A stretch of 64,000 nt of DNA from an uncultured Ignavibacteria bacterium (GTDB lineage: Bacteria > Zixibacteria > MSB-5A5 > CAIYYT01), in assembly GCA_964584025.1 (NCBI GenBank), contig CAZOYE010000011.1:25588-89587 (forward strand), given 5' to 3'. The notes beneath the pieces were generated by a model. The model had not been told where the DNA came from, did not search any database, and saw only the letters and a list, made by a program, of their open reading frames with translations. Shown here one piece after another: positions 1,201 to 64,000 of this stretch. Made by a program: the position numbers and the translations under genes. Within the stretch, counting starts at the first letter, position 1. The number at the start of each line of letters is the position of its first letter.

Positions 1201-1742
1201 GGACCAAACAACGGGATGAGGTGCATGCACTACTACCTTCAGATCCGATGAAGATCATTTCTAACTTTATCCCACACAAGATGTTCCGGAGCGCGCCCAA
1301 AAGCGTTTCGTCCATGCGCCGCCGGTTGACACCGTCTTGAAAGAGCGAAGTAGTATTCCCGCGCGTGTTGAATCGTTCAACAGCTTGGGGAGGCTCGTTG
1401 TACTTAGACAGCCCAACCCATTCTCCGACACCCTCCTATGGCCAAGTGTTCAGAGAATGAACTACTGTTTCTAATGTCGGCATGATCCCGGAGAACTTCA
1501 ATCCTTCAAGATCACCGAAAATGCCATTTCTATATATTGCTGTTCTTGGCCAGCAATGCCACTACAGATAGTTTTTGAGGGATCAAAAGTCAAATAAAAC
1601 TTGTGTTTGGATGCACAGTATCTGCAGGGCGAGGACATGCCGAGGGCCGGTCCGTCGGCGCGATTTAATATTGACTTAAGCGGTCGAAGTTGTTACCTTG
1701 CAGCAGAATACAAGATTCCACATCTATCAATTCGGCGGCAGG

Positions 1743-1758
1743 TGGTACCAACGTCGCC
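1743..1758 (+). promoter_or_regulatory. weaker sigma-54-like -24/-12 element upstream of the LOX/dockerin gene
   Basis: TGGTACcaacgTCGCC: GG/GC spacing is correct, with one mismatch in each element. It lies 25 nt upstream of the ATG at 1783, with an AGGAGA Shine-Dalgarno between. Confidence 0.3.
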
Positions 1759-1782
1759 GCCAATAGCTTCTCAGGAGAACCG

Positions 1783-38844: not shown

Positions 38845-38874
38845 TTCACTAACGAAGTATTGGGCATTGAAGAG

Positions 38875-38910
38875 CGCCGTCAGGACAGAATCCTGACGGC
38901 GTTTTGCTTT
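38875..38910 (+). terminator. Rho-independent terminator; copy 1 of a repeated 27-nt palindromic hairpin
   Basis: CGCCGTCAGGA-CAGAA-TCCTGACGGCG (11-bp stem) followed by TTTTGCTTT. Confidence 0.7.
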
Positions 38911-38918
38911 GGGGAGAA

Positions 38919-40586
38919 TCAGGATCCACCAGCCAACAATTCCCGCTGACGCGATTGGGCGGTATTGCCGTAGTAGATCTTCCTCCAGGTGTCTTTGTCT
39001 TCAAGATGGCGAAATGCCGTCGCGCCTTGCGCTGCCGGTGAGGCCGCCCATTCGCGGAAGGCATGGTGTTTCCACAGACGCAGAAACTCCGTGAAGTAAA
39101 TGTCGGCGACGGTCGTATCACCGCGAACGACGAGCATGTTTTCGTCGTTATTGGTGGTCGAGGCTTTCGAGAAATTCGCGGATCCCGAAACCACGATCGG
39201 ATCGCTGCCCAGCGGATCGATCAGCATGTACTTCGTGTGAACATAGCGGGCGTGCTGGTTAAGCCCACTAAGCTGCTCACGCAGCCACGCGTCGAATCTG
39301 TTTACTTTCATGAAGTTTCCTACGGCGAACCGATTCCATGGTTTAAACCGCAATTCCTTGACGACACTCTCCTGCGCCGGACCTCCGTCACTGTCGAGCA
39401 ATGCGTAGCGAAGGCCGCTGAAACTGCCTCGCATCATGTCGGCAAACGGCGCGCTGACGCCAAAGGGGAACGTCATGCAGGTCATCGTCTGTGAAGATCC
39501 GGCCAGATCGGCGTACCACTGGAGCAGTTTCTCGCCTTTGCGCGGGCTGAAAAGGATGGTCGTTCCGGTGTTCACCAACGTTGAAGTTGGCGTTGGTGTA
39601 TTGTTGTCGACCCAGGGCCGTAAGACTTTGGCTTCAGGGTCGCCAGCGAGTTCGTTCCAGTAGTCGAGATAGATCTGAGCAACGGTGCGGTCATTCACGA
39701 CATGACCGACATCGGAATGGCCGAAGATGCCGCCGCGAGTGAAGTTCGTTGAGCCTGTCCAGACGGCCTGAGGTACGCCGTTGCGCAGAAGCACGATGAA
39801 TTTATTGTGGGCGATGTAACTCGGATTCTCCTTCCGGGGCGTGCAGAGTACCGCTATGCCGGCAGCCTGAATGGCCGCATCGTTGGGTACCGCTACTTCG
39901 TCTTTGCGCGCGTCGTAGACGATCCTGACATCGGCGCCATCCGCTTTCGCCTTCTTGAGCGCCTCGAGTACAGGAGCGTAGGTGAACTGGTAGGCAGCCA
40001 CGCGGAGGGCAAACGACGCGTTTTTCGCACGGCCGATGAATTCGCCCAATGCTTCATTGAGCCCGCGCGAGAGCCAGTTCCAGGCAGGCTCACCAACTTC
40101 ATCGGGGCGTCGGTTGTTAAAGCGGCGCGCGTATTCCTGGCTGGCAGCGGCACCGCGATTGAACCAGACCTCGTGCGTACCAAGATCTTCCTCCTCGGTG
40201 GTAATCGTCACGCTCACTTCGGCGTCCTCCTGGAGATCGTCAGGCGTGCCCTTGAGCGCGACGACACGATACCGGTATTTGCGACCCGGCTTAGCGGTCA
40301 GGTCAGACCACGTAAAAGCCTGAAGAGGATGCTCGCGGGTGGATACGAGTCCGTCCAGGCCGACGCCCGGATCAGTTAGCGCGAAGGTCTTCATCCCCCG
40401 CAGCCAGTAGAGTTCATCCGCCTCGTAATCGCGCCGCTGGATCGCGAACCCAAGTACGCCACGCGACTTTGCCTCGGTCATGTCCCAGCCGAGCATCACA
40501 ACGTGAGTCCCCGCAACGGCAAGAAGCTTGATGCCGTCGTTGTTAGCCTTTCGTCTCATGTTTTTCCACCTTTCTAAGTTTAGCAT
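38919..40586 (-). CDS. phospholipase D-family protein (two HKD motifs) with an N-terminal beta-sandwich-like domain
   Basis: The ORF 38919..40586 is flanked by copies of the 27-nt hairpin (copy 1 at 38875-38901 between this gene and the upstream dockerin gene; copy 2 at 40788-40814 downstream of dnaK). First HKD motif AHNKFIVL...GSTNF; second VHTKYMLID...GSANFS. Confidence 0.8.
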   Translation of the reverse strand: MLNLERWKNMRRKANNDGIKLLAVAGTHVVMLGWDMTEAKSRGVLGFAIQRRDYEADELYWLRGMKTFALTDPGVGLDGLVSTREHPLQAFTWSDLTAKPGRKYRYRVVALKGTPDDLQEDAEVSVTITTEEEDLGTHEVWFNRGAAASQEYARRFNNRRPDEVGEPAWNWLSRGLNEALGEFIGRAKNASFALRVAAYQFTYAPVLEALKKAKADGADVRIVYDARKDEVAVPNDAAIQAAGIAVLCTPRKENPSYIAHNKFIVLLRNGVPQAVWTGSTNFTRGGIFGHSDVGHVVNDRTVAQIYLDYWNELAGDPEAKVLRPWVDNNTPTPTSTLVNTGTTILFSPRKGEKLLQWYADLAGSSQTMTCMTFPFGVSAPFADMMRGSFSGLRYALLDSDGGPAQESVVKELRFKPWNRFAVGNFMKVNRFDAWLREQLSGLNQHARYVHTKYMLIDPLGSDPIVVSGSANFSKASTTNNDENMLVVRGDTTVADIYFTEFLRLWKHHAFREWAASPAAQGATAFRHLEDKDTWRKIYYGNTAQSRQRELLAGGS

Positions 40587-40779: not shown

Positions 40780-40814
40780 AATGGAAACGCCGTCAGGACA
40801 GAGTCCTGACGGCG
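40780..40814 (-). terminator. terminator for dnaK; copy 2 of the repeated 27-nt palindromic hairpin
   Basis: CGCCGTCAGGA-CAGAG-TCCTGACGGCG (40788-40814), 26/27 identical to copy 1. On the minus strand it is followed by TTTCCATT. Confidence 0.55.
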
Positions 40815-40859
40815 CGGATTTATGTAAAGGGGTTAAAGGGGAACTGATGCAGACGACTC

Positions 40860-50495: not shown

Positions 50496-51689
50496 TTACT
50501 TGAGAAAAAGCAGTTTGAGCGCTCCTGATTTGCCGTATTGACGGCAAAAATAAATGCCGCTGGAAACAACATTTCCTGATGAATCCCGGCCATCCCACAT
50601 GAAGTAGTCTCTCCCATCGACGTTGAAGACGGTCACCAATCGGCGCACTTTGCGACCGAGAAGATCCATGATCACCATCTCCGCGGGGGAATCAGAGACG
50701 ATGGTCGTTTCCGAGTTGAATGGATTGGGGAAGCTCGACATCGAGCCGTTGGATGGGATGTCCTGTGCCGCCTGGTCGCCGGCGCTCGTCATGAGGTCGA
50801 TGAGAAGCGCATCAGACTTCGGCCCCAGATTATCGCCGAGCCAGGCAGCGACTGAAAGGTACTTGCCGTCGATTTCTTCTCGAGAGAAGACATAGTGCAT
50901 CGCCGAGGTGCCAGGCACAATTTGCTCCGGCATAGTAGCGGCTGCATCTCCAATACTGATCATGAAGATCGAAAAGGAATCAGGAAATTCCGCGGAAGGG
51001 GCGAAGCTGCCGATAGTGTCGCAGACGCTATAGGACATGCGCAGATGGACGTTCATATCAGTCAGATCAATCCAGGTGATTGACTCGCCTTCCGGAGTGC
51101 CGAACCACTGCCCCTCGGCGCCGATCGTGTAAGAGACCGCCAAGGCCGGTGCGGACGGAGTTGCTTCGAGCCACTCGACCATGACGTACACGGCATTACC
51201 GACACTGCAAAGCGCTTGAACCGGAAAGCGGCACCATTGCGCCGCTGAAGCGATTGTAGAACAGGCGACAATGTTCTCCCAGAGGGGGGCCTCCGACGAT
51301 GTGCCTGGCAGATGATCATAGATTGCCAGGCGAAACGGCGACATGAAGTCCCCGGGCTCCTCGACGTGCGGATCGCTCGGCCAGAGGCGCAGTTCCACGG
51401 CTTCGACAGCGATCTCCGGCCTTTCAACAGGCAGTTCCCTGACAAATCTGGCGCCGACGTACTCCGACGAATAGAACACAAATGAGATCGGTGTCTCATT
51501 ACGATCGCCGGCGAGTTGGCTGTTTACTCCGGGATAGTACCAGGCGACGACGACACTGTCGTCTCTTGCGGCATAGGAGAGTCCGTATGGCGCGTGGATT
51601 TCATCCGACTTGATTTCAGTTGAAACCGCCATGGCCGCCGCCAGGACGACAGCAAACGGAACCCTTATTTGAGCACCCCTACCATTCAT
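50496..51689 (-). CDS. secreted protein with a T9SS C-terminal sorting domain (CTD)
   Basis: Signal peptide MNGRGAQIRVPFAVVLAAAMAVST. The C-terminal ~80 aa FPNPFNSETTIVSDSPAEMVIMDLLGRKVRRLV...WDGRDSSGNVVSSGIYFCRQYGKSGALKLLFLK matches the Por-secretion CTD pattern (NPFN...DxxGRxV...WDGxxxxGxxxxSGxYF.R......KLLLxK). Confidence 0.75.
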   Translation of the reverse strand: MNGRGAQIRVPFAVVLAAAMAVSTEIKSDEIHAPYGLSYAARDDSVVVAWYYPGVNSQLAGDRNETPISFVFYSSEYVGARFVRELPVERPEIAVEAVELRLWPSDPHVEEPGDFMSPFRLAIYDHLPGTSSEAPLWENIVACSTIASAAQWCRFPVQALCSVGNAVYVMVEWLEATPSAPALAVSYTIGAEGQWFGTPEGESITWIDLTDMNVHLRMSYSVCDTIGSFAPSAEFPDSFSIFMISIGDAAATMPEQIVPGTSAMHYVFSREEIDGKYLSVAAWLGDNLGPKSDALLIDLMTSAGDQAAQDIPSNGSMSSFPNPFNSETTIVSDSPAEMVIMDLLGRKVRRLVTVFNVDGRDYFMWDGRDSSGNVVSSGIYFCRQYGKSGALKLLFLK

Positions 51690-51791
51690 GGATATGTTGG
51701 AAGATATTAGATCGTGCGCTGAGGCGCAAGCCATGAAATGGCTCAAGCATAATAGAATCAGTTCTCGATGATGTAATGATCGAAGAGCGGA

Positions 51792-52652
51792 TTAGTCGCG
51801 CGCCGAACTCAGCAATTCGCCCTTGGTGGTGGAATAGACTTCACGAACGGAGGCGAATTCGAACTCGGAAAGCATGCGGCGAAGTTTGGGTTCGACGGTC
51901 GAGAGATTCGTGTAATGGCGCAGTCGGCTTTTTAAAGCCACGCCGCTCTCGCGCGGTTGATCGGGATCGAGTTCCCAGGGATGAAGGTAGATCATGGCCG
52001 GATAGCCGGCTGCATTATATAAACGAATGGCTCGTCGTGTGTACCAGTACGGAAACATGCGAAAACTTCCGCCGCCACAAGCCGGCAGCCGTTTGCCGAG
52101 AAAGACGCAGGTTACCGGCGGGATTTCCAACAGCCGACCCTGGCTGGTATTGATGAAGTGTGGATAGCGAGGAGCGCTGGGGTCGCCGTAAAGATCGTGG
52201 CGGATCGGATAGATGCTTGAGTCATACTCGATGCCACATTTCACGAGAATTTCCCAGATCCACTCGCGTCCGCGTTCGGCCGAAAAGGTGGGAGCGCGAT
52301 AACCTTTGACCCGGACTCCGGAGGCATCTTCCAAAGCCCCGATCGAGCGGCGGATATCGTCCTCGAATTGCTTCTCGTCGAGGCGTGTCAGCGTATCGTG
52401 GCCGTAGCCGTGGGTCGCCAGTTCGTGGCCGCGCGCCTTGATCATTGCCATAATGTGCGGGAAGCGCTCGGCGAGCCAGCCAAGTGTGAAGAAAGTCGCG
52501 GTGGCGTGATATTCGTCGAGAATATCGAAAATCCGCATCATGTTCATCGTGAGCCGGCTTTGGCGCTTGGACCACTCCGAACGCGGAATGTGGCTGTAAA
52601 ACGCTTCGACCTGGAAGTGCTCTTCCACGTCAAATGACAGAATGTTCTTCAT
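51792..52652 (-). CDS. polysaccharide deacetylase, exopolysaccharide-locus subfamily (XrtA/PEP-CTERM-locus-type)
   Basis: MKNILSFDVEEHFQVEAF N-terminus typical of that subfamily. NodB-like His/Asp residues (HGYGHD). Confidence 0.7.
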   Translation of the reverse strand: MKNILSFDVEEHFQVEAFYSHIPRSEWSKRQSRLTMNMMRIFDILDEYHATATFFTLGWLAERFPHIMAMIKARGHELATHGYGHDTLTRLDEKQFEDDIRRSIGALEDASGVRVKGYRAPTFSAERGREWIWEILVKCGIEYDSSIYPIRHDLYGDPSAPRYPHFINTSQGRLLEIPPVTCVFLGKRLPACGGGSFRMFPYWYTRRAIRLYNAAGYPAMIYLHPWELDPDQPRESGVALKSRLRHYTNLSTVEPKLRRMLSEFEFASVREVYSTTKGELLSSARD

Positions 52653-52655
52653 ATC

Positions 52656-53360
52656 TCACGACTTCTTGGTTGCGTAGTTGTAACCGTAGTACTGATGGTT
52701 GTAGTGGTACGGCAACACGCCGGACACATTGTTCAGTACAACACCGACGATATTCGCATCGGTCTTACTGATTATATCGGCAGCCCGCTTGATAACTTCT
52801 TTCTGCGTTGCTCCTGCCTTGACGACGAGAAGAAGTCCGTCCATGTTTGGACCCAGGACCACCGGGTCGGATACCGGTATTATCGGGGCGCAATCGACGA
52901 AAACCAAGTCAAAATAGAATTTCACCTTTTCAATCGCCTCGATCACTTTATCGCTTTCAAACAGCTCTGTAGGGTTGTGTTTCAGAGTGCCGGCGGTGAG
53001 AATCCAAAGATCGCTGATCTTGGTCGGCTTAAAGGCGTCCTCGGCCTTGGCAGTGCCGTCGATGATATCGGTCACGCCGGGCTCGAGAGGAAGGTCAAAT
53101 ATCTTGTGGATCGTCGGGCGGCGCAGGTCGGCGTCGATAAGGATTGTCTTGCGTTTCTTATAGGAGGCCGCCGTGATCGCCAGATAAGACGACACGGTAG
53201 ACTTCCCCTCCGAGAGCATTGCCGAGGTGACAAGGAAAGACCGTTTCGAGACACCCTTGACAGGCCGGGTGATATTGTGCAGCAGGCGGCGGAATTCGGT
53301 ACCGACAACGGACTCGGGATGGTAATACTCCCAGATCGGTCTGCGCCGCTCCTTGTTCAC
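52656..53360 (-). CDS. CpsD/CapB-type bacterial tyrosine autokinase (cytoplasmic BY-kinase domain)
   Basis: Walker A SAMLSEGKSTVSSYLA, Walker A' ILIDADLRRP, Walker B LVFVDCAP, and a C-terminal tyrosine cluster YHYNHQYYGYNY. Confidence 0.85.
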   Translation of the reverse strand: MNKERRRPIWEYYHPESVVGTEFRRLLHNITRPVKGVSKRSFLVTSAMLSEGKSTVSSYLAITAASYKKRKTILIDADLRRPTIHKIFDLPLEPGVTDIIDGTAKAEDAFKPTKISDLWILTAGTLKHNPTELFESDKVIEAIEKVKFYFDLVFVDCAPIIPVSDPVVLGPNMDGLLLVVKAGATQKEVIKRAADIISKTDANIVGVVLNNVSGVLPYHYNHQYYGYNYATKKS

Positions 53361-53362
53361 AA

Positions 53363-54487
53363 CTATCCTTTCAGGATCGCCTTGACTAAAGCATCGAAGC
53401 CGCGGAATTCGTTCTCCGCGAGGCGCAGGCTCTTCTTTGCGCGCTCGAAGTCCGGATTGATCTTGAGAGCTTCCTGATACTCCTTGATCGCCTTGGAGTG
53501 AATGAACCGCCCCATGAGCGTGTAGGCGACCGCAAGATCGTAGTGAAGGTCCGGGAAATGAGGATTCTTGGCAATGGCGTCCTTGAGATTCTCGATGCGG
53601 CGGCGCAGTGTTTTCTCGTCGATTTTGTCAGTGACGAGCATGAATTTCAGGTAGACGCTGGAGAACTCGCGGAAGCGCTGTTCCTTCTTACGCTCGCGAG
53701 CCAGTACGAGCTTTGTGTAGGCGCCTTCCAGATCGCCCTCGCCAAACAGGCGCCGGCCGTCATCGAAGTTTTTGTCCTGATACTCGGGGCAGACGACAAT
53801 GGCTCGCTCGAGATTTTCGGCGATTTTTTCGGTGGCTTCCGAGAACAGCTTGAAGTCCTCGCGTCTTATCGAATTTAAGACGTAGGTCAGCGCCTTGTTG
53901 TAGTAGGCGTCACCGTAGTAGATGTTGATGGTGATGGCCTCATCGAATTCGATCATGGCGCGCTTGCAGCTCCCGTGCGCCAGATAGGCCTCGCCGAGGT
54001 TGTTGCGATAGTCCGCAAAACGCGGTTGTGAATCGACGCAGCGATTGAAGACTTCGATCGCTTCGGCGAACTTGTTCTGCATCATCAGGACCTGCCCCAG
54101 GTGACACCACTGCTCGTGGCCGTCGGGCCGCAGCGAGACCGCGCGGCGGAACAGGACCTCGGCTTCGTTGTACATCTTCTTGTACATGAGCGCGAGAGCA
54201 AGGTAGTCGATCTGCTCGGCTTCGTTGGAGCTGAGCGCCTCTTTATAACGCTCAAAGATGTGCTCGACTTCTTCTTTGCGTTCTTTGTGGGCGTTCTTCA
54301 CCAGTTCGAGCAGTTCCTGCTCGGGCAGATGCGGGTAGACGTTTTCTTCAACCGTTTCGAGCAACTGACCCTCGGCGAAGATCGACGAGCGAATCTGGTG
54401 ATTCGCCGTGTCGTTCACCGTCTGGATCAGATATTCGCGATCGGTCGAAGCGACCCGCGAGTTGAGTCGATAAGTTTCCATCAGCAC
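53363..54487 (-). CDS. TPR-repeat protein within the exopolysaccharide cluster
   Basis: Multiple canonical 34-aa TPR units (AxxYxxLGxAY-type). Confidence 0.65.
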   Translation of the reverse strand: MLMETYRLNSRVASTDREYLIQTVNDTANHQIRSSIFAEGQLLETVEENVYPHLPEQELLELVKNAHKERKEEVEHIFERYKEALSSNEAEQIDYLALALMYKKMYNEAEVLFRRAVSLRPDGHEQWCHLGQVLMMQNKFAEAIEVFNRCVDSQPRFADYRNNLGEAYLAHGSCKRAMIEFDEAITINIYYGDAYYNKALTYVLNSIRREDFKLFSEATEKIAENLERAIVVCPEYQDKNFDDGRRLFGEGDLEGAYTKLVLARERKKEQRFREFSSVYLKFMLVTDKIDEKTLRRRIENLKDAIAKNPHFPDLHYDLAVAYTLMGRFIHSKAIKEYQEALKINPDFERAKKSLRLAENEFRGFDALVKAILKG

Positions 54488-54490
54488 TTC

Positions 54491-56005
54491 CTATGCCGCC
54501 TTCATTCCCTTGGCTTGCGACGAGGCATCGATATTCGGAATGGTCCCGACCACCTCCAGCCCCAAGAGCTCTTCAATATCTTCAACGCGTTTAATCGAAT
54601 GGTCAACGACCTCGACAACAACGACGGCGCAGCCGCCCAGCACGAGTCCCAGAGCGAGTCCCATCAGGGTGATCTTGCCGCGATCGGGCGAAGAGGGCTC
54701 CAGGGGAATCGTAGCCGGTTCGAGGATCGTATAGCGCGTTTCCGCCTCCGCTTCCTTGCTGGCGCGCGCGATTTTCTGGCGCTGAGCCTCGTCCTGCCAG
54801 TTCAAATATTCTTTCTTCTTTTCTTCAACTTTGTTCTCCAGACGCTTCACCATCTGTTCATAATACGGTTGGCCGGCGATGACGCCCCGAATTTCATTCA
54901 CTGCCGCGGCGAGGATTTCCCGTTTGCGCTGCAGAAAGCTGATTTCGTGAGAGCGGTAGACGAACTCGCCGGCCTCGTTGCGCGCGGCGGTTGCCAGGTT
55001 CGGATACTGCTGCGCAACGATGCGCGTACAGGCAGTTTGCAGTGAATCGAGCGCATCGCGCGTCCGGAGCAGCTGCGATTGGATCTTGCCGTCCTTCCAG
55101 AGATACCGCGAGAGCAGCTCGGCCGTTTCCCGCGTTGACTCCTCGGCGGCGGCTTTGTGGCGGCGGACCTCCGGCGTTACGGCCAGCACTCTTGCGGTGT
55201 CGATCCCTTCCGAGATAAGCTTGCCCGCCAGGAAATTCACCCGGTCAGAAGCTTCACTGGTTTCGATGCGAGTGGCGTCGACTTCCGACTCGATCTGTCC
55301 CAGATTCTGATCGGAATTGATCCCCGCCTGCAGTTGCCGATTGCGGTAGGAAGTCATGAAGTCGGTGAGTTGTTTGTCGGCGTCTTCGTATTCTTTCTTG
55401 GCGATCGAGAGCTGTTTCTCCGCGAGGGACTGGCCTTCGTCACCGGCCAAAACCTGCTCGCTCAGTTTGCGTTCGCGATAGACCTCGGCCAGGGCTGTGG
55501 CCATGCCAGCGGCCTGGCGCGGATTGCGCGAGCGGGCGGTAATGACGACCTGATTTTCCCCGATGAGGCCGACCTCGATATCGTCACGCAATTCCTCGAT
55601 CTGGAGGGTGCGCACCATAGTCGGCAAGTCGTTATCGGGAAAGTCGGATAACATGTTCCGGGCGTCGGCCATCACGCGCTCCGATGGCTCAAGTTTCATT
55701 TGCTCGATCATCCGATTGATATAGCCGGAAGAAGTGATCTCCGAGCGCGTCGCCGCGAGCCAGTACTGGCGCGCCCGAGGTTCGGGCAAGACTCCGGCTT
55801 CGTCCGGGAGCAGCCGCTCGAGTGTTGGTGAGAGGAATTTCTGATTGGAAATCACGACCTTGGTTGCCGATTCGAAAATGGTCGGCAACGCGTAACTGCC
55901 GGCGAAGGCGACTGCTGTGACGACGACCAACGGCGTCACCAGCCAGAACTTCCGCTTCCAAACGATCTGCCAGATGTCGCGCAGTGTGATTTGGCGCTGA
56001 CTCAC
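54491..56005 (-). CDS. polysaccharide chain-length determinant protein (Wzz/GumC family; BY-kinase transmembrane activator)
   Basis: Wzz N-terminal motif (LRDIWQIVWKRKFWLVTPLVVV). Large periplasmic coiled-coil region. C-terminal transmembrane helix (ITLMGLALGLVLGGCAVVVV). Confidence 0.8.
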   Translation of the reverse strand: MSQRQITLRDIWQIVWKRKFWLVTPLVVVTAVAFAGSYALPTIFESATKVVISNQKFLSPTLERLLPDEAGVLPEPRARQYWLAATRSEITSSGYINRMIEQMKLEPSERVMADARNMLSDFPDNDLPTMVRTLQIEELRDDIEVGLIGENQVVITARSRNPRQAAGMATALAEVYRERKLSEQVLAGDEGQSLAEKQLSIAKKEYEDADKQLTDFMTSYRNRQLQAGINSDQNLGQIESEVDATRIETSEASDRVNFLAGKLISEGIDTARVLAVTPEVRRHKAAAEESTRETAELLSRYLWKDGKIQSQLLRTRDALDSLQTACTRIVAQQYPNLATAARNEAGEFVYRSHEISFLQRKREILAAAVNEIRGVIAGQPYYEQMVKRLENKVEEKKKEYLNWQDEAQRQKIARASKEAEAETRYTILEPATIPLEPSSPDRGKITLMGLALGLVLGGCAVVVVEVVDHSIKRVEDIEELLGLEVVGTIPNIDASSQAKGMKAA

Positions 56006-56970
56006 TCTCCCAACCTGTCAATAAGCAGAACGGTCGATGTGATTGTCGTCCCTAACGTGATGATGTCACGGAATAGATTGAACCCGCTGCCGACTCCACC
56101 CGAGCGCGCCGGGATGTAAATGGCATCCTCGGGCTTGAGCAGATAGCGCTGCGGGCTGCCGGTTTTGAGCTGTTTGTCGAGATTCACCTCGTAAACATTG
56201 GCGTAGTCGCCGCTCTTGGAAGAGACGCGGATCTTCTTGAGGTCGGCATCCGGCGTGGTGCCTCCAGCCAGCGCGATCGCCTCAATCAGATCAAGGCGGG
56301 CATCCAGCGTGTACGCATTCGGCCGAGTCACAGCGCCAACGATGTAGAAAACGTTACGTTTGGCTTCACTTTCGGCAAGATTGATATTCGTCGGCACGCC
56401 GCCCAGAGTGGGAGGCACGCGAATGATGTCCTTTGCATGCACTTCCGGGAGTTGCGAAAAATCGCGCGATCGAATCGCCGAGAGTACGTCGACGGTGAGC
56501 ACGGTGCCTGGATCAACGGCGCCGCCGCGGATCAGGCGGACATTGGTTAAGTCGCCGGTAGCAGTCGGGCCGCCCATTTCCTTAATGACCGTCCAGATAT
56601 CAGGAATGACTTCCCTGGCATATCTGCCTGGAGAAACAACCTCACCTTCAACAAAAACGGTCTGAGAATTGAAAGCCGTGACGACAACGGTGGCCTGGCT
56701 GATGTCGCGATTAAATCGCGAGACTTGCTCGACGATCTTACGGGATAGTTGCGATGTGGTCAAGCCGGCCGCCGTGATTTCACCGATGACTGAAAGGGTG
56801 ATTTTGCCGTCGGCATTCACAACAACCGACTGGTCGAGAGTAGGCGCCTGCCAGAACGAGACCTGCAGAACATCATCAATCCCGATGACGTAGTCTGCTA
56901 GGGCGCTCTGCGGGGCCGCTAACCCGAGAAAAACCAGCAACAAGATGGGTAGTAATAACTTCCGAGTCAT
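56002..56970 (-). CDS. polysaccharide export protein (Wza/EpsE-like; Poly_export + SLBB domains)
   Basis: Signal peptide. DYVIGIDDVLQVSFWQAPTLD...NADGKITLSVIGEITAAGLT is the Poly_export signature. Followed by SLBB-like repeats. Confidence 0.8.
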   Translation of the reverse strand: MTRKLLLPILLLVFLGLAAPQSALADYVIGIDDVLQVSFWQAPTLDQSVVVNADGKITLSVIGEITAAGLTTSQLSRKIVEQVSRFNRDISQATVVVTAFNSQTVFVEGEVVSPGRYAREVIPDIWTVIKEMGGPTATGDLTNVRLIRGGAVDPGTVLTVDVLSAIRSRDFSQLPEVHAKDIIRVPPTLGGVPTNINLAESEAKRNVFYIVGAVTRPNAYTLDARLDLIEAIALAGGTTPDADLKKIRVSSKSGDYANVYEVNLDKQLKTGSPQRYLLKPEDAIYIPARSGGVGSGFNLFRDIITLGTTITSTVLLIDRLGE

Positions 56971-56975
56971 AACTC

Positions 56976-58715
56976 CTACTTCTTCACGGTAATCAGATTT
57001 TCATCGAACATAAATGACTTATTCTTGCCGGTGCTCTTCGCCTGCAAGAGCGCCATGTCGGCACAATATATTAATCGGTCAATCCGTTGTGCGTCATTAG
57101 GATAAATCGCTCCCCCCAGTGATACGGTGATTTTGAGACTGGCGGGAGTGAATTTGTCGCGGAATTCGTTTTCGAGAATGGCGTTGCGCAAGCGATCCAT
57201 GAAATTTATGCAGTCGGCGGCGTTGGTATCAGGCATAACAATACAGAACTCCTCGCCTCCATAGCGCGACACGATATCGATAGAGCGTACCGACTTAGTC
57301 AGGAGTCCGCCAAGCTGCTCCAACAGAAAATCTCCTGATTGATGACCGTAAGTATCGTTAAAAACCTTGAACCCGTCAACATCAAAGATGACCAGGCCGA
57401 GGTGGCGATTAAATCGCTGGGCGCGAGTCATTTCCTGCTGAAGCCGCTTGTAGAAGTAGCGGTAGTTGTAGAGACCGGTCATCTCGTCGGTGTACGAAAG
57501 CCGCTCGATTTTCTCGAAATTGGTGAGGTTGTCGAGGATCAAGCCGAACATGCGGCTGAAGGTTGAGAAGACCTCGATATTCTCCGGGCTGAATTTCTCC
57601 GGCGGGCAGTTCATCCCGATATATCCATCTCGCGGATTGGAGCCGTTCAAAAATCCCAGGCAACGAATACCGGCCGCCTTTAACTGGGCAATTGCCTCCG
57701 AGCCGTCCTGGGAGTAGGCCTCCAGAGAAAGGACAGGCCTCTCAGGGCTGAGGAGTTCGAACAAGGAATGATTGGCCGCCAACGTGAAGTCAGCGGGGAG
57801 ATTCGGGAGCTTTCCCCGATCTCCTTGACGCGTGACCGTGCGCCTTTCGGCGTCATGAACCAGAAGAACCGCTGAATCAACTTTGAACTCCTCCGCAAGC
57901 AGCCGCAGGTAGGCCGCGTAGAGCTTGTTGCGATCGTAGATCCGCGCCAGCTTATCGAGCGCCGAAATGAGTACGGTGGGGTTGCGGCGATTCGCGGTCT
58001 CATGCGATGAGCGGTCGTTTTTGAGTGCATCGAGCTGCTGACGCAGTTTCTGGACGGTGAGGTTATGTTTGTAAGTAGCATCGTCGAGATGCTTGAAATT
58101 TCCGACCTGGTCAGCCAGCGACAACAAGAAGGGCCGGATGATTCGAAACGGCACGTCCTGAGGCGTGGAGAAGGCGATGAAATAGTTGCAGCGCCCGCTT
58201 GTCAGAACCGGCACGGCCTGATCGAACGGATGGGGGTCATTGCCCTGGCTGCCGTCCCCGGGGTAGACCTTGCGAAACGGAATCGATGATTCCCGTTTTT
58301 CCAGCATGTGCTCGAGTTCGGGACGGAAGAGGACGCGATAGTTTTTGAGACTTTCGCGCTCTGCGCCAAAGAGATCGGTCAGCATGTAGCCGCGCTTGCG
58401 GCGGGCGAAGACGGCTACCGTGTTAAGTCCAAAATCGTCGTGAAAATAGCGGGCGAGCGAGGTCACCTGTTGATCGAGTTGTCGGCGCTGCGAGAAGTCC
58501 TTGTGAATCTGCTCGACCTGGTGCAGGTAGAGGCGCACGATGGTTTCGAGGCGATCGGTGCCTCGTCTTCTCAGCAGGATAGCATAGCTAAAACCACCGA
58601 CGAGGGCGACGACGATCGCCGCCACAAGCAGCGGGCGCGACCATTGATCGACAAGCAAAGCTCCGCCGATCAGCGCCGTAATGGTCGCCATCAAAGCTGC
58701 CAGAAAATAGAGCAT
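56976..58715 (-). CDS. membrane-anchored diguanylate cyclase (GGDEF) with a GAF-like sensor
   Basis: Two N-terminal transmembrane helices. Central GAF-like region. C-terminal GGDEF domain with RYGGEEFCIVMP and product-inhibition-site-like RxxD. Confidence 0.85.
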   Translation of the reverse strand: MLYFLAALMATITALIGGALLVDQWSRPLLVAAIVVALVGGFSYAILLRRRGTDRLETIVRLYLHQVEQIHKDFSQRRQLDQQVTSLARYFHDDFGLNTVAVFARRKRGYMLTDLFGAERESLKNYRVLFRPELEHMLEKRESSIPFRKVYPGDGSQGNDPHPFDQAVPVLTSGRCNYFIAFSTPQDVPFRIIRPFLLSLADQVGNFKHLDDATYKHNLTVQKLRQQLDALKNDRSSHETANRRNPTVLISALDKLARIYDRNKLYAAYLRLLAEEFKVDSAVLLVHDAERRTVTRQGDRGKLPNLPADFTLAANHSLFELLSPERPVLSLEAYSQDGSEAIAQLKAAGIRCLGFLNGSNPRDGYIGMNCPPEKFSPENIEVFSTFSRMFGLILDNLTNFEKIERLSYTDEMTGLYNYRYFYKRLQQEMTRAQRFNRHLGLVIFDVDGFKVFNDTYGHQSGDFLLEQLGGLLTKSVRSIDIVSRYGGEEFCIVMPDTNAADCINFMDRLRNAILENEFRDKFTPASLKITVSLGGAIYPNDAQRIDRLIYCADMALLQAKSTGKNKSFMFDENLITVKK

Positions 58716-58798: not shown

Positions 58799-59533
58799 TC
58801 AGGCCTTGCGACTATAACGAAAGCGGTTCTTTTTGGACAAAAGCGAATGGCGGCGGAGAATGCTCCAGACGCCCCACCAACCGATCTTCTGGCCATCCCC
58901 GTTGGCATCGCTGCGAATAATGCGCACGATTTCGCCAATGGAGTAGAAGGGGTCGGTCTTGACCAGGCTGAGCACGAGGCTCTCTACGCTGGGGCGAGCG
59001 GTGACTGACGGAGCGGTTTTTGTCTCCGGCGGGGTCACTGCCGAGGCCTTGATTCGGGCCGTCGGCAGATCGGCTTCGGCTGTGGCGACTTCGACCTGGC
59101 GGGCGATGGATGCTTTTTCGGCTTCCTTCTGGTTATGCTGGCGGACTTCCGCGGCGGCGTCTTCACCGGAATGCCCGTTGCCACGAAACTCGATTTTGGC
59201 CTTTTCGATATTGTCGTAGGCTTTCAAGATCGAGTCGAATTCAAGCAGCTCGAAGATCTCATAGACACTGGGGATCATTCGCGCGAGTTTGATGTCGCCG
59301 GAGTTGGACTTGATCTCGCGGATATTGCTGATGAAGATGCCCCAGCCGGCGGAAGAGATATAATCGACGCCGGCAAGATCGATGATGATCTTGTAGCGCT
59401 TCTGCTCCATCAGCGAGTTCATGACGCGTTCGAGTTCGGATGAGGTCATCGTGTCGATGACACCGTCGACGCGCACCAGAGTGACGTCGCCGCTTTGCCC
59501 GGCCGTATCCAGAGAGATTCTTATGTCGTCCAT
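58799..59533 (-). CDS. STAS-domain protein (anti-sigma-factor antagonist-like) with a C-terminal extension
   Basis: TLVRVDGVIDTMTSSELERVMNSL...IIDLAGVDYISSAGWGIFI is a STAS/SpoIIAA fold signature. The extra ~120 aa C-terminal region is Ala/Glu-rich. Confidence 0.75.
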   Translation of the reverse strand: MDDIRISLDTAGQSGDVTLVRVDGVIDTMTSSELERVMNSLMEQKRYKIIIDLAGVDYISSAGWGIFISNIREIKSNSGDIKLARMIPSVYEIFELLEFDSILKAYDNIEKAKIEFRGNGHSGEDAAAEVRQHNQKEAEKASIARQVEVATAEADLPTARIKASAVTPPETKTAPSVTARPSVESLVLSLVKTDPFYSIGEIVRIIRSDANGDGQKIGWWGVWSILRRHSLLSKKNRFRYSRKA

Positions 59534-60312
59534 GCCTGCTTCTCGTCCTTTGCGGCCGCCACCGGATGGCCGTTTTGTGAATAGTTGGCGATTTCCTTTG
59601 CGAACAAGAAGTAATCGAGCGCACCGTTGGAATAAGGCGCATGTTCGAACACCGTCTTGTATAACATCTGCGATTCTTTCAGTTGCGTGTTGATCCGGAT
59701 CTTGGATGCAAACAACTTGTCACCGTACTCCGTGAGCAACTGGTTGTAGATCGTTTTTGAGACCTTGGTCCTCGTGTCAAAAAACGTCGCGAGAATCCCC
59801 AGCAACTCGACCTTGCGGCCGATTTTCCGGTAAAGATCGTCAAGTAACTTAAGGGTCTTCTTGGCGCCCTCACAAGCAAAAAAATCCATCGAGACCGGGA
59901 TCACGACGCCGTCGACGTAGTTGAGGACATTCATATTGATCAGGTTGATTGCCGGGGGGCAATCGCAAATCACGTAATCGGTGCCGCGCAGATTTTCGAG
60001 CACCTGCCGGAGGCGCTGTTCGCGGTCGACCTGGCGCGCCAGGAACAACTCCGTTTCGACGATGCGCGTGTTCCCGGAATCGATCAAGAAGAGGTTGGGG
60101 CGCAGCGGCGCGATCTCGACTTCTCCGGTTGTGAGGAGTTCTGCCAGACCCTTCTGCGGCTGGACGTTGAAAGCCATCGACACGTTCGCCTGGCTGTCGC
60201 AGTCGACGATAAGGGTCCTCTTCCCCGACATGGCGAGACAATGCGCCAGGTTGATCACCGTGGTGGTCTTGCCGGTTCCGCCTTTACAGGTTATGACCGC
60301 AATTTTCTTCAA
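59521..60312 (-). CDS. ParA/MinD-family P-loop ATPase
   Basis: Deviant Walker A KGGTGKTTTVINLA. DCDSQANVS motif. Confidence 0.85.
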   Translation of the reverse strand: MKKIAVITCKGGTGKTTTVINLAHCLAMSGKRTLIVDCDSQANVSMAFNVQPQKGLAELLTTGEVEIAPLRPNLFLIDSGNTRIVETELFLARQVDREQRLRQVLENLRGTDYVICDCPPAINLINMNVLNYVDGVVIPVSMDFFACEGAKKTLKLLDDLYRKIGRKVELLGILATFFDTRTKVSKTIYNQLLTEYGDKLFASKIRINTQLKESQMLYKTVFEHAPYSNGALDYFLFAKEIANYSQNGHPVAAAKDEKQAWTT

Positions 60313-63131
60313 TCTTTTTCATCCTTGCGTTGATCGCCGAGGAGACGTTTTTCGTAATCGGCAAATGAGAGCGAAGGTTCCGCGTCGGGCAGCTCCACCG
60401 TTTCGAGACTGATCCCCTCTTCGGCGCGTTTTTGCCATTCCTTCTCGTCGACAGTCTCGAGACGCGCCGTCGACAAGACGTTGCGCTTCTCGGCCTCGCG
60501 GTCCAGTTCCTTGACTCGGCCGGCGACACGGTCAAATAATAAACGCAACTGATCGGCGGATATTTGACCTTCCATCTCTTCAAACATGGCGGTCAAGACA
60601 TCGGTGCGCTCGTCGTCGACGCCCAATTCGCGTAAGCGATCTTTAAAAGCCGCGAGTTTGTCGTCTTCTTGTTTCTGCAAGTTGTCCTTGATCTGGCCCA
60701 GGTAGGCGGCACGATCCAGGGTCGGATGGGGCGACTCCACCTTCTGCGCCAGCTTGAGGTACTCCTGCTCCTGCTCGGCCGTAAGGGTTCCGCCGAAGCG
60801 GCGGGCAAACTCATAACGTTGGCGTTTGGTGTTAAGCCGTAGGCGCACCAGTTCGGAGTAGATCGTGCGGTCCTCAACACCGACATCTCCCGCCTGCTCG
60901 AGTTCACGTTTGATGCGTGTGGGGCCGTAGTCCGGGTTCTTGCGGATGATCTCGAGCACGGCATTGCGCTCGTTGTAAGAGAGTTGCGCCGGAGCATCGT
61001 CGACGCGCAGGGTCTTATTGAGGAGGCCCTCTTCGCCGAACTGCTCAAAGCGCTTCTTGTAACGATAATAGGTTGAAGTCGAGAGTCCCATCATGCGGCA
61101 CGCTTCCGCCACCGGGACTCTCTGGACATCCACCATTTCGAGCAGTTTCTTGCGGCGGGCGAAGATGTATTCGTCGGCCTCGACCTTTTCCTTGATCGCG
61201 ACCATCGTGATATCGTCGTTCTGCTCGGCGCCCTGGGTGAACTTGCCGAGGTCTTCTTCGAACTTCTCGGCGAATTCATCCGGCGACAGATCCGAGTTGT
61301 CGCGGATGAACTGCAGGAACTTCTCCATGCCGTATTGCTGTTTGCGCGGGTTCATCGCCTCGGTGATACCATCGGTATAGATCACCAGCATGTCGCCCTT
61401 TTTGAGGCGCACGCCCTGGCTCTCGAGATTTTCCTCGAAACTGACTCCGTCAGGCAAGGTTATGCCAAGCGGAATGCCGCGCGGGTTCATGAAGAAGGTT
61501 TTGTCCTCGTCCTTGCGGTAGAGAATCATCGGATTGTGCCCGGCCGAGGCGAAGGAGATTTTGCGCTGCTGGGTGTCGATGACGACCATGAAGATCGTGA
61601 TGAACATCCCTTTGCGGACATCCTCGGTGACGAATTCGTTGACGTTGCAGAGAATATCTACCGGCGAGCGGGCGCCGCGCGACTCGAGGCGAATCGCGGT
61701 GCGGATCATGGTCATCACGAGCGAGCCGGGGACGCCTTTTCCGGAAACGTCGGCCACCACGATACCGAGCGTTTTTTCGTCGAGCCAGACGAAATCGTAG
61801 TAGTCGCCGCCGACGTCCTTGGCCGCGCGATAGATGGTCGCGATGTCGAAGCCCTCGATATCGGGGAAACTCTTGGGCAGCAGCGTGTGCTGGATATCCT
61901 GCGCCACCTGCATCTCTTTGCGCATGCGCTCCTGCTCGACGACGTTGGCCTGGGCTTCTTTGAACTTCACGCGCATCTCATTGAAGGCTTCGGCGATGGC
62001 ATTGTATTCGGCGGCGCCTTCGACTTCGATCTTGGAATCGAGGTCGCCCTTGCCGATGCGCCGCACACCGTCGATCAGGCGTTGAATCGGCCGCACGAAA
62101 TAGTTCGAGAGCAGGTAGACCGCGCCTATAACGATAAACATCGCGATAGCGACGGTTACGAGAATAGTCTGGCGCGCTTCGGCGATGCCCTCGAGCAGGC
62201 GTTCTTCACCGAAGCCGACGTGCAATCTCCCATATGAATTGGCCTGGTAGTTGATCGATTCGACGACGTGATGCAGGCTGCCCCCGTCCTCTGCGACGTA
62301 GGGTTGCGCGACACCGGTTCGATCCGCATCGATACCGTCCGGAGGCTCGTAGGTCGTGTGCAATCGTTCGGGGAGATCGGTTGAGGCAAGGACCTTGTTC
62401 TCCCGGTCGACGACGAAGATGTAGCGAACATCCTGATTCTGGCGCGCGAAGTTCCGGACAAACTCGTCGAACTCGACGTCTGAGGAACGATTGATGAAGT
62501 GATTGGCCGCCTGTGCCGCGATGGCGTTGCCGTATTCGGCGATCGACGCGCTAAATTGCTCCTGCCGCCAAATGACCATGCGCGTTTCCCAGAGGAAGTA
62601 GACCGAGACGATAACGGCGGTCATGATCAGCGAGGTCCAAAGCGCGAATTTCCAGCGGATCGAAACGCCTTCGGTTTTTGCTACCGGTTCGGGCTTAATG
62701 TCCGGGTAACGCTTGACAAGCTTGAGTTCGTTGACGCCGGCGTTGGTGGAGTAGGAGACATCGTCGGTGACTTTGCGAATCAGGTAGATTCCCAAGCCGC
62801 CCTTGCGCCCGGTCTTGATGTAGTGATCGAGATTGGGATCGGTCAGCTTGTCGAAATCGAAACTGCGGCCGCGATCGTAAATGGAGACGCCCATGCGATC
62901 TTTAAAGAGCGATAGGCGGAGCTTGATCGTGCCTTCGCCATAGAGGTAGGCGTGGCGGATAACGTTGGTGCATGCCTCTTCAATTGCCAGAAGAATCGCG
63001 GTCGTGTCCTTACGGCGAAACGGAGTCTCGGCAAGAACCGTCTCGACGAAACTGCGAATGTCCGGCAGCTTAGCTTCCTGCGCCGGAAATTCGGCAAAGA
63101 TTTCTTTCGTGGGACGGGAGAAGAGTCTCAT
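60309..63131 (-). CDS. multidomain partner-switching signalling protein: RsbW-like HATPase_c kinase + 2 TM/periplasmic sensor + HAMP + PP2C (SpoIIE/RsbU) phosphatase + C-terminal transposase-derived HTH/coiled-coil region
   Basis: N-terminus AILLAIEEACTNVIRHAY...GGLGIYLIRKVTDDV is the anti-sigma-regulatory-factor kinase fold. Two transmembrane helices bracket a ~170-aa sensor region. HAMP domain (IQRLIDGVRRIGKGDLDSKIE). PP2C motifs (GGDYYDF, DVSGKGVPGSLVMT, TDGITEA). C-terminal VPVAEACRMMGLSTSTYYRYKKRFEQFGEEGLL...AVLEIIRKNPDYGPTRIKRELEQAG resembles the IS481/IS3 transposase N-terminal DNA-binding region; no DDE domain follows. Confidence 0.8.
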   Translation of the reverse strand: MRLFSRPTKEIFAEFPAQEAKLPDIRSFVETVLAETPFRRKDTTAILLAIEEACTNVIRHAYLYGEGTIKLRLSLFKDRMGVSIYDRGRSFDFDKLTDPNLDHYIKTGRKGGLGIYLIRKVTDDVSYSTNAGVNELKLVKRYPDIKPEPVAKTEGVSIRWKFALWTSLIMTAVIVSVYFLWETRMVIWRQEQFSASIAEYGNAIAAQAANHFINRSSDVEFDEFVRNFARQNQDVRYIFVVDRENKVLASTDLPERLHTTYEPPDGIDADRTGVAQPYVAEDGGSLHHVVESINYQANSYGRLHVGFGEERLLEGIAEARQTILVTVAIAMFIVIGAVYLLSNYFVRPIQRLIDGVRRIGKGDLDSKIEVEGAAEYNAIAEAFNEMRVKFKEAQANVVEQERMRKEMQVAQDIQHTLLPKSFPDIEGFDIATIYRAAKDVGGDYYDFVWLDEKTLGIVVADVSGKGVPGSLVMTMIRTAIRLESRGARSPVDILCNVNEFVTEDVRKGMFITIFMVVIDTQQRKISFASAGHNPMILYRKDEDKTFFMNPRGIPLGITLPDGVSFEENLESQGVRLKKGDMLVIYTDGITEAMNPRKQQYGMEKFLQFIRDNSDLSPDEFAEKFEEDLGKFTQGAEQNDDITMVAIKEKVEADEYIFARRKKLLEMVDVQRVPVAEACRMMGLSTSTYYRYKKRFEQFGEEGLLNKTLRVDDAPAQLSYNERNAVLEIIRKNPDYGPTRIKRELEQAGDVGVEDRTIYSELVRLRLNTKRQRYEFARRFGGTLTAEQEQEYLKLAQKVESPHPTLDRAAYLGQIKDNLQKQEDDKLAAFKDRLRELGVDDERTDVLTAMFEEMEGQISADQLRLLFDRVAGRVKELDREAEKRNVLSTARLETVDEKEWQKRAEEGISLETVELPDAEPSLSFADYEKRLLGDQRKDEKD

Positions 63132-63215: not shown

Positions 63216-64000
63216 TCAATTGGTTTTGCCGTTTGATTGAAGTCTTAGTTTAGCTTGAACGATGTTCTTTTCGGTTTCGGGATTCCCCGGATACTTTGCC
63301 AACACCTGTTCCCAGAGGCGAATGGCTTCGGCATACGCGCCATTGCGGAACTTATCGATGCCGTCGAGATAGAGCTTCCACACCGCACCATCTTTCTGAA
63401 TTTCGCTCAGGGGGATAGCGCCAGCCGACCTGCCGTTGTCAAGCTTGCTCAGGAGCTCCAATGCTACAGTGTCCTGCGGATTGCTTGAGAGCGCTTGAGA
63501 CAGGAACTGGCGAGCCTGTACGGTGTCGCCGGCACTGTAAGCGGCCACACCGGACCGCAGCAGTCCCAAGGAGGCAATGCGATTATTGATCTGAATCAAG
63601 CTGCGTTGGGCGGCCTGATCGCCGGGATTGAGTTTGAGGATTTCGCCGTAACTCACAGCGGCATCGCTGTACTTGCCGGCATTGGCCTGGCGCGTGGCCT
63701 CAGTGCGCAGCGCCGTGATTCGGTCACCTGTCAGGAGGTTGTACTCGGCTTCGCTTTGCTGGAACCGCTGGTCGGCTCCAAAGGCGGGGCGCAGCCGCGA
63801 GAGCATCACTGAAGCAGCCTCGAGATCCTTGACATCGAGCGCCTCCCGCAGTTCGCCGAAGAGCTCTGCCGCCTTGGCTGAGTCGGTTTCGGCGAGCACG
63901 CCGGCGCGCACGGAAGCGGTCAGTTGGTCGGTGCGCTGGCGGTCGATCTCGGCAAGACGCTCGTCGGCCTCATCGCTGTTGTTGCCGGTCAGTACGTAGA
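63216..64000 (-). CDS. TPR-repeat protein (5' end runs off the window)
   Basis: TPR units throughout. The reading frame continues without stops to position 64000. Confidence 0.6.
   Translation of the reverse strand, partial: YVLTGNNSDEADERLAEIDRQRTDQLTASVRAGVLAETDSAKAAELFGELREALDVKDLEAASVMLSRLRPAFGADQRFQQSEAEYNLLTGDRITALRTEATRQANAGKYSDAAVSYGEILKLNPGDQAAQRSLIQINNRIASLGLLRSGVAAYSAGDTVQARQFLSQALSSNPQDTVALELLSKLDNGRSAGAIPLSEIQKDGAVWKLYLDGIDKFRNGAYAEAIRLWEQVLAKYPGNPETEKNIVQAKLRLQSNGKTN

Follow-up and report, generated by a model that had tools for sequence, protein, structure and literature searches.

We analyze a 64,000-nucleotide stretch of contig CAZOYE010000011.1, assigned to an uncultured Ignavibacteria bacterium (hereafter, "the window" refers to this entire stretch), in which one gene on the reverse strand encodes a 940-residue membrane protein predicted to be a bifunctional partner-switching sensor. 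The protein carries an RsbW-like serine kinase and a SpoIIE/PP2C phosphatase on a single chain and continues for 293 residues beyond the end of PP2C at residue 647. We consider it very probable that the segment following PP2C was domesticated long ago from an IS481-type transposase, whose two-part DNA-binding module (HTH_23/28 plus HTH_32) it retains without the catalytic domain, and that it is now fixed in a conserved family of membrane sensors, each pairing an RsbW-like serine kinase with PP2C and predicted to act on STAS proteins of the anti-sigma-antagonist type. An exact match to the full protein exists in public data (P0142).

Domain organization of the fusion protein

As judged from Pfam matches and hydropathy, the protein is ordered as kinase, transmembrane (TM) and sensor region, HAMP, PP2C, two-part helix-turn-helix (HTH) module, and tail. 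Its features are as follows:

60309..63131, minus strand: whole gene of the 940-residue protein, a predicted bifunctional partner-switching sensor (open reading frame, ORF; Pfam architecture)
62712..63089, minus strand: HATPase_c_2, RsbW-like serine kinase, residues 15-140 (Pfam, E 4.1e-26)
62097..62651, minus strand: two predicted TM helices, residues 161-181 and ~322-345, around the sensor (hydropathy)
61971..62114, minus strand: HAMP, residues 340-387 (Pfam, E 2.3e-11)
61191..61778, minus strand: SpoIIE/PP2C phosphatase, residues 452-647 (Pfam, E 3.6e-50)
61125..61187, minus strand: linker helix from PP2C to the HTH module, residues 649-669 (AlphaFold models)
61014..61118, minus strand: HTH subdomain 1, HTH_28/HTH_23 type, residues 672-706 (Pfam, conservation)
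60792..60989, minus strand: HTH subdomain 2, C-terminal half of HTH_32 (P-x-Y-G ... IYSELVRLRLNT) with the basic helix KRQRYEFARR, residues 715-780 (Pfam HTH_32, IS481 model up to position 112, conservation)
60366..60791, minus strand: acidic/basic helical tail, residues 781-922 (composition, low-confidence AlphaFold helices)
60342..60365, minus strand: C-terminal motif FADYEKRL, residues 923-930, then a charged end (motif comparison across fusion proteins)

Both enzyme domains appear intact at the motif level. The kinase retains EEACTN (51-56), DRGRSF (86-91), and GGLGI (111-115), with N-box and G-box present, and matches the RsbW NCBIfam model at E 1e-19, which is under the model cut-off. 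The phosphatase keeps the metal-binding motifs GGDYYD, DVSGKG, DGITEA, and NDDIT and is the segment with the highest conservation across loci. Given the two TM helices predicted from hydropathy, the kinase, HAMP, PP2C, and HTH parts would lie in the cytoplasm and the sensor of ~140 residues outside it. Pfam matches of this sensor to sCache_3_2 and HK_sensor are weak here, with stronger sCache matches in orthologues. The last 160 residues (781-940) include 40 acidic and 26 basic ones and are modeled by AlphaFold as long helices with low confidence. This tail is conserved in the Zixibacteria-type clade only, as a tblastn search with it detects just loci L001-L022.

The segment behind PP2C matches the non-catalytic part of IS481 transposases

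The two-part module occupies residues ~659-780, and it passes the Pfam gathering cut-offs of HTH_28 (residues 659-706, 35.5 bits versus 25), HTH_23 (659-704, 34.0 versus 24.6), HTH_32 (687-758, 41.7 versus 33.7), and HTH_29 (31.2 versus 28.1); orthologues show the same Pfam HTH domains. The NCBIfam model of IS481 transposases (NF033577) aligns through its positions 2-112, out of 284, to residues 660-771 at E 1.6e-19. These positions make up the entire non-catalytic region N-terminal to the catalytic core. Weaker NCBIfam matches of the module are to the IS3, IS630, and ISNCY models. No rve/DDE catalytic domain is matched by Pfam anywhere in the protein, and the whole-model IS481 score of 67-70 bits does not reach the cut-off of 224. 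An initial annotation, made from the letters of the window, had proposed homology of this segment to the N-terminal DNA-binding region of IS481/IS3-type transposases and the absence of a DDE domain after the HTH, and both proposals hold. The interval that it gave, 60640-61150 (residues 661-831), spans the HTH module (60792-61157) and also takes in the start of the tail.

When residues 648-800 are modeled alone with AlphaFold, a confident fold results (predicted local distance difference test score, pLDDT, of 87, with subdomain 1 above 90). The long linker helix leads into a three-helix HTH, which a flexible connector joins to a second HTH built from three or four helices; the basic helix comes last. 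The fold matches the DNA-binding domains of TnsB, Tc3, and IstA and the paired domains of Pax proteins. A sequence search of solved structures gave marginal matches only, the best at E 0.0013 to an uncharacterized Listeria protein. Like the N-terminus of the IS481 family, the module has the order HTH, GL-containing linker, P-x-[WY]-G winged helix, and basic R-Y-E junction, together with the two-part fold of the transposase and paired-type domains just named. Unlike an IS481 element, it has no rve/DDE domain, terminal repeats, or mobility; it lies inside a signaling protein and holds a fixed syntenic position in 80 loci. The 940-residue protein is thus not a transposase, and its module is a member of the HTH_23/28/32 Pfam families of the homeodomain-like clan.

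Features typical of a DNA-binding domain are kept in the module. In 79 family members, almost no variation is seen in the recognition helix S-x-STYY[RK]YKKR (here STSTYYRYKKR, 684-694), in P..G, in Y.EL.R.RLNT, or in the arginine that follows. Averaged over the same 79 sequences, the net charge is +4.1 for subdomain 1 and +2.6 for the helix after subdomain 2.

When 1.84 billion representative proteins are searched exhaustively, 852 relatives of the module are found at E <=0.001 and 88 at E <=1e-10. Besides PP2C fusions, the ten relatives scanned with Pfam include a genuine HTH_32 plus rve transposase (P0321) and stand-alone tandem-HTH proteins. The view of the segment as a domesticated transposase module, already offered in the initial annotation, is supported by the N-terminal homology, the absence of the catalytic domain, and the transposase-type fold matches and relatives. 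Stand-alone tandem-HTH proteins are present in Microgenomates (P0290). Five long proteins (P0296, P0299, P0301, P0303, and P0318), one of them annotated from a Patescibacteria metagenome-assembled genome (MAG), carry two N-terminal tandem transposase-type HTH modules and a family-2 glycosyltransferase; they seem to bear a domesticated module of this kind on a different membrane enzyme.

The module is a fixed domain under purifying selection

We scanned one genome per species with a five-sequence alignment as the query; 174 genomes proved to encode a relative of the module, and the best 80 loci from these were fetched and examined. Their MAG labels are Zixibacteria (some of them "uncultured Ignavibacteria"), Krumholzibacteria, Latescibacteria, UBP1, Gemmatimonadota, and Bacteroidota. 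In every examined locus with enough sequence, kinase, sensor/HAMP, PP2C, and HTH follow one another in one reading stretch, and the same fusion is present on hundreds of independent metagenomic contigs. Importantly, the result does not depend on searching with the HTH itself: the best 120 matches of an HTH-free query (residues 1-650), at 49-100% identity, all carry HTH_23/28/32 except four that are short or truncated. Conversely, the last 297 residues retrieve 21 metagenomic proteins at 35-60% identity, 17 of which have SpoIIE and the same HTH domains.

The module is also better preserved than the kinase and the sensor in distant loci, with 40-50% identity for the HTH versus 35-40% for the kinase and 22-33% for the sensor. 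Relative to the nearest relative with unsaturated synonymous sites (L002), the ratio of nonsynonymous to synonymous substitution rates (dN/dS) is 0.086 for the HTH, 0.13 for the kinase, and 0.015 for PP2C; for the HTH it is 0.12-0.15 relative to L009, L010, and L014. Judged by these ratios, the module is under purifying selection. Since orthologues in at least five named uncultured lineages keep it, we regard it as a working part of a little-studied signaling system rather than insertion debris. We found no IS-like terminal inverted repeats around 59500-62000. Within the 64 kb of the window the module occurs just once, and the G+C content of the segment (0.575-0.593) is the same as that of its flanks.

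The sequence behind the HTH differs by clade, as a helical tail of ~150 residues (the clade of the window), three STAS domains, ~370-420 residues ending in TPR, ~230 residues of another kind, or ~60 residues. The module does follow PP2C, as the initial annotation had it when describing a C-terminal fusion, but it is a constant element with variable sequence behind it and not a mere appendage.

The taxonomic labels appear inconsistent. Contigs named "uncultured Ignavibacteria bacterium" (L001-L005, L007, L009, L014, L016-L018) group by sequence and gene order with loci titled Zixibacteria, and a 98%-identical relative of the window is among the Ignavibacteria-titled contigs.

A STAS protein with a related winged helix

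The same-direction run after the enzyme gene comprises a ParA-like ATPase, a STAS protein with a winged-helix-like domain (STAS-wH), a GGDEF cyclase, and then polysaccharide genes:

59521..60312, minus strand: ParA/BcsQ-like P-loop ATPase, 263 residues (Pfam AAA_31, E 5e-37)
59198..59497, minus strand: STAS domain, residues 13-112 of a 244-residue putative substrate protein, gene 58799-59533 (Pfam, E 4.3e-17)
58802..58987, minus strand: winged-helix-like C-terminal domain of the STAS protein, residues ~183-244 (hhalign, hidden Markov model, HMM)
56976..58715, minus strand: membrane GGDEF diguanylate cyclase, 579 residues, next gene in the same direction (Pfam GGDEF, E 4.8e-43)

The STAS protein scores 64.3 bits against TIGR00377, over the cut-off of 53.45. 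The context of its putative phosphorylatable serine, DYISSAGWG, is invariant, with S60 and S61 both invariant in 25 homologues. Its C-terminal domain of ~60 residues is conserved (DPFYSI...GWW.VW.ILRR..LLSKKxRFRYSR), has no Pfam assignment, and is shared by hundreds of metagenomic STAS-wH homologues of ~235-245 residues. In hhalign, this domain aligns to subdomain 2 and the basic helix of the enzyme with a probability of 89-95% (E 6e-8 to 5e-7). The domain of one orthologue matches Pfam HTH_32 positions 28-73 at E 2.7e-4, and an HMM of the domain picks up the enzyme HTH2 in L008. BLASTP of the STAS protein against the enzyme C-terminus returns nothing, and the kinship is visible by profile-profile comparison only. 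The initial annotation placed an HTH on the enzyme, correctly, and overlooked this homologous copy of subdomain 2 in the STAS gene.

The Krumholzibacteria/Latescibacteria-type enzymes (~1430-1480 residues) are arranged differently, with kinase, Cache, HAMP, PP2C, HTH, and three STAS domains in one chain; free STAS proteins in these loci have no winged helix. (These are loci L025-L070, e.g., L065:6161-10495; one bears the NCBI name "anti-sigma factor antagonist" and nothing else.) We tabulated both arrangements in the 51 loci whose ORF is intact and whose sequence extends at least 4.5 kb further downstream. A free STAS-wH without STAS in cis is found in 28/51, STAS in cis without a free STAS-wH in 20/51, both in 0/51, and neither in 3/51. 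From this distribution, STAS hardly ever occurs without physical coupling to an HTH_32-type domain, which is either that of the enzyme chain or a copy belonging to the STAS protein. As the coupling recurs in all arrangements, it suggests that STAS phosphorylation gates the action of the HTH. The module is nevertheless kept with the same motifs where free STAS proteins have no winged helix, and in Bacteroidota-labeled loci without a neighboring STAS, which favors a ligand other than the STAS winged helix.

The C-terminal motif is linked to an adjacent ParA-like ATPase gene

The TTG start of the ParA-like gene overlaps the TGA stop of the fusion gene (TTGA), and the STAS-wH gene overlaps the ParA-like gene in turn by 13 nt. 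The ATPase has the deviant Walker A motif KGGTGKTT and further Pfam matches to CbiA and ParA; NCBIfam matches to BcsQ (1.2e-25) and ParA (7.8e-24) are each under cut-off. We considered and rejected a BY-type tyrosine kinase for this gene, as its Walker A is of the ParA type and a separate tyrosine autokinase lies at 52656-53360. On a 76.9-kb ENA contig (P0004), a 273-residue gene call merges a frameshifted enzyme tail with the ParA-like start, probably an assembly or sequencing error, yet one that confirms the order of tail and ParA.

Enzymes whose stop abuts a ParA-like gene share an end motif, whatever separates the HTH from it. The motif reads F-x-[DE]-Y-E-[KQ]-[KR]-L in the Zixibacteria type, G-W-x-E-Y-G-[KR]-K-L with a polybasic end in the Krumholzibacteria type, and RDWSKYAQRLKRK in a third group, which gives [FW]xx-Y-x-[KR][KR]-L overall, often with a basic run behind (60342-60365 in the window; 3' ends of the fusion genes in L001-L070). 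The strict pattern occurs in 44 of the 55 proteins with an abutting ParA gene, most others being close variants, and in none of the 16 without an adjacent ParA; these counts are uncorrected for shared ancestry and may amount to three clades with the motif and three without. By this pattern, FxDYEKRL is a candidate peptide for docking of the ParA-like ATPase. Several clades that retain the HTH lack the ParA-like gene.

Cyclase and exopolysaccharide genes

The GGDEF protein passes the cut-off of TIGR00254, and its gene is syntenic in Zixibacteria-type loci. Directly downstream lies an XrtA/PEP-CTERM-type exopolysaccharide locus (50496-56970, minus strand) with genes for an export protein, a chain-length determinant, a TPR protein, a tyrosine autokinase, and a polysaccharide deacetylase, the last scoring 339 bits against TIGR03006 (cut-off 276). 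Because the enzyme shares an operon with a diguanylate cyclase upstream of an XrtA-type export locus, its physiological output is probably to regulate how much matrix or biofilm is produced. Among the neighboring genes examined, we saw none for a sigma factor.

Comparison with known partner switches

Partner switches such as RsbU/V/W, SpoIIE/AA/AB, SypE/A, HsbR/A, and SiaABC are understood to signal by protein-protein exchange that ends at a sigma factor or an enzyme. Those closest in layout to the system in the window have both opposing activities on one chain and control polysaccharide or c-di-GMP. SypE of Vibrio fischeri has an N-terminal serine kinase and a C-terminal PP2C and acts on the STAS protein SypA (PMC10120452), and HsbR of Pseudomonas aeruginosa toggles between kinase and phosphatase activity on HsbA, which in phosphorylated form binds the cyclase HsbD (PMC5085249). 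The system in the window shares with both an RsbW-like kinase and PP2C on one chain and a single-domain STAS partner with a conserved serine. With SypE it also shares the N-terminal kinase and C-terminal phosphatase. In the Hsb system the STAS protein addresses a diguanylate cyclase and not a sigma factor alone; GGDEF and polysaccharide genes are adjacent here. It differs from SypE and HsbR in that a TM Cache-like sensor with HAMP replaces the central receiver (there is no Pfam Response_reg match in the protein), in the HTH module behind PP2C, in the winged helix on the STAS protein, and in the ParA-like ATPase of the operon. To our knowledge, none of the HTH module, STAS winged helix, Cache/HAMP input, or ParA-like ATPase has been described for SypE or HsbR. 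By this comparison the enzyme would work like SypE and HsbR, and we place it outside their group because it has no receiver domain.

A third relative is SiaA of the Pseudomonas aeruginosa SiaABCD system, a membrane HAMP-PP2C phosphatase controlling a partner that activates the diguanylate cyclase SiaD (PMC8457831). The enzyme of the window aligns to the SiaA model over residues 320-646, its HAMP-PP2C part, and the GGDEF protein aligns to the SiaD model; the scores, however, are 69.9 bits versus a cut-off of 700 for the SiaA equivalog NF038263 and 150.5 versus 290 for SiaD. In contrast to SiaABCD, the kinase is fused here to the phosphatase and the putative substrate is a canonical STAS protein, and SiaA is not known to carry an HTH.

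Possible functions of the module

The reading that we favor, with a probability of roughly 55% for the whole, is that the domesticated module serves as the DNA-binding output or anchor of the partner switch. An extracytoplasmic signal would act through the Cache-like sensor and HAMP on the balance of kinase and phosphatase, and this balance would determine whether the STAS protein or proteins are phosphorylated. On DNA, the enzyme would be held by the HTH module and the substrate by the homologous STAS winged helix, so that STAS phosphorylation could have a direct effect at the level of DNA in place of the release of a sigma factor. The ParA-like ATPase would probably be engaged by the C-terminal FxDYEKRL peptide of the enzyme, and, by analogy with the known switches, the neighboring cyclase and polysaccharide genes could plausibly serve as outputs. 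Homology, domain order, conservation, synteny, the complementary distribution of the STAS-linked HTH domains, and the association of the motif with ParA are observed directly; DNA binding, its target, and the direction of regulation are the parts of this scheme that we infer.

For the module taken by itself, we put a role as nucleic-acid-binding output or anchor at about even odds. Such a role is favored because the whole DNA-binding region of the transposase is preserved and not a fragment, because the recognition helix and the basic residues are its most conserved positions, and because the module is unchanged in clades where docking on a STAS winged helix is impossible. There is precedent for the topology in ToxR/CadC-type regulators, which join a sensor, TM helices, and a DNA-binding domain in one chain and in which membrane tethering is compatible with DNA binding. 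The window protein likewise has an extracytoplasmic sensor, TM helices, and a cytoplasmic DNA-binding-type domain on a single polypeptide. In the ToxR/CadC type, however, this domain is an N-terminal OmpR-type winged helix without enzyme domains, whereas here a transposase-derived module follows two opposing enzymes.

Several observations weigh against DNA binding. The enzyme is embedded in the membrane, so its access to DNA is limited. Subdomain 2 is near-neutral on average (+0.9, standard deviation 2.5, in the 79 sequences). An intergenic alignment of 10 close loci and a search for 8-10-mers common to the 200-nt regions that precede 71 genes revealed no conserved upstream motif. Shared 11-13-mers in 20-kb neighborhoods of the 80 loci all fall inside the PP2C coding region, with none in non-coding sequence, and the window as a whole holds no repeated candidate site. 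The related modules joined to family-2 glycosyltransferases in Patescibacteria hint at a role beyond classical operator binding.

The main rival to the nucleic-acid role dispenses with DNA. The HTH module of the enzyme and the winged helix of the STAS protein would bind each other and keep the substrate near the active sites, as the covalent STAS fusion would in the Krumholzibacteria type. We consider this rather unlikely. In its favor, free STAS-wH (28 loci) and STAS in cis (20) are strictly complementary, a distribution that it explains well, and the two domains that would pair are homologous. The IS481 N-terminal region moreover has a leucine-zipper dimerization element, to which the 940-residue protein shows a weak Pfam match (LZ_Tnp_IS481, E 0.029). 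Substrate tethering does not account well for the persistence of the module, with its invariant recognition-helix residues, where STAS has no winged helix or no STAS is nearby, and STAS substrates of the canonical kind bind directly to the kinase and phosphatase domains, as in the SypA-SypE model (PMC10120452).

A more elaborate form of the DNA-binding scheme brings in the ATPase and strikes us as unlikely. In this sigma-bypassing switch, the sensor's module, the second-half copy borne by STAS, and the ParA-like ATPase recruited through FxDYEKRL would form a phosphorylation-controlled ParB-like unit, which might either anchor a site on the chromosome at the membrane complex or determine where along the nucleoid the complex sits. 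Like ParA/ParB, the operon has a deviant-Walker-A ATPase gene beside the gene of an HTH protein with a helical region and a short terminal peptide that co-occurs with the ATPase. It differs from ParA/ParB in having no ParB/CTPase domain (none of the proteins scanned gave a ParB-family match), in a peptide that is C-terminal rather than N-terminal, and in that no parS-like site was found.

It is more doubtful still that the former DNA-binding module now only spaces or dimerizes the cytoplasmic domains, with no external ligand. The helical linker is continuous with PP2C in the AlphaFold models, the variable sequence behind the module would permit a role as a hub, and the site searches found no operator, all of which would fit a spacer. 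A spacer would not, however, be expected to show almost no change between lineages in the exposed basic and aromatic residues of the recognition helix (STYY[RK]YKKR, RLNT) or to evolve at a dN/dS of ~0.09.

Finally, the resemblance to transposase N-termini could in principle reflect a recent IS-insertion remnant in frame with the PP2C gene, as the initial annotation had also allowed, or an artefact of assembly or gene fusion, but this can be rejected with near certainty, given the fusion in 80/80 loci and on hundreds of independent contigs, its presence in all orthologues found even with the HTH-free query, the purifying selection, the single copy in the window, and the absence of terminal inverted repeats, composition shift, and catalytic domain.

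Annotation and significance

In public databases, members of the family are named "SpoIIE family protein phosphatase," "HAMP domain-containing protein," "anti-sigma factor antagonist," or a combined RsbU-phosphatase/anti-sigma-factor, and JGI calls some partial sequences "transposase." We found no description of the architecture in the literature on PP2C-HTH, STAS-ParA, Zixibacteria, or domesticated IS481 domains. Here, a conserved family builds a transposase-derived DNA-binding-type module into the enzyme and a related domain into its putative substrate. If the module binds DNA, the family would provide a path from STAS serine phosphorylation straight to DNA and a clear bacterial case of transposase domestication into signaling. 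The complementary architectures, in which STAS either follows the HTH or bears an HTH copy of its own, can be read as a natural experiment and point to cooperating parts, and the link between the C-terminal motif and ParA offers a second testable interaction. All members seen stem from uncultured organisms, and the family is widespread in uncultured lineages.

Other observations in the window

Upstream of the enzyme, the conserved neighbors in the loci inspected are a very large protein (~2000 residues in relatives) that ends in an FlgD-Ig-like domain and a protein of ~615-640 residues with C-terminal TPR. The window holds just the end of the latter (63216-63911); relatives show the region at L081:288-6409 and L071:36-8036.

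Elsewhere, two near-identical 31-nt palindromes with perfect stems (GCGCCGTCAGGACAGA[A/G]TCCTGACGGCG), at 38874-38904 and 40785-40815, flank a 555-residue ORF (38919-40586); they may be terminators used in common or copies of a small palindromic repeat element. A 60-nt direct repeat with 65-70% identity occurs at 4477-4536, 4576-4635, and 38773-38832, near the 3' ends of the ORFs at 1690-4650 and 37546-38844, which suggests that two proteins, separate in other respects, have a C-terminal repeat domain in common.

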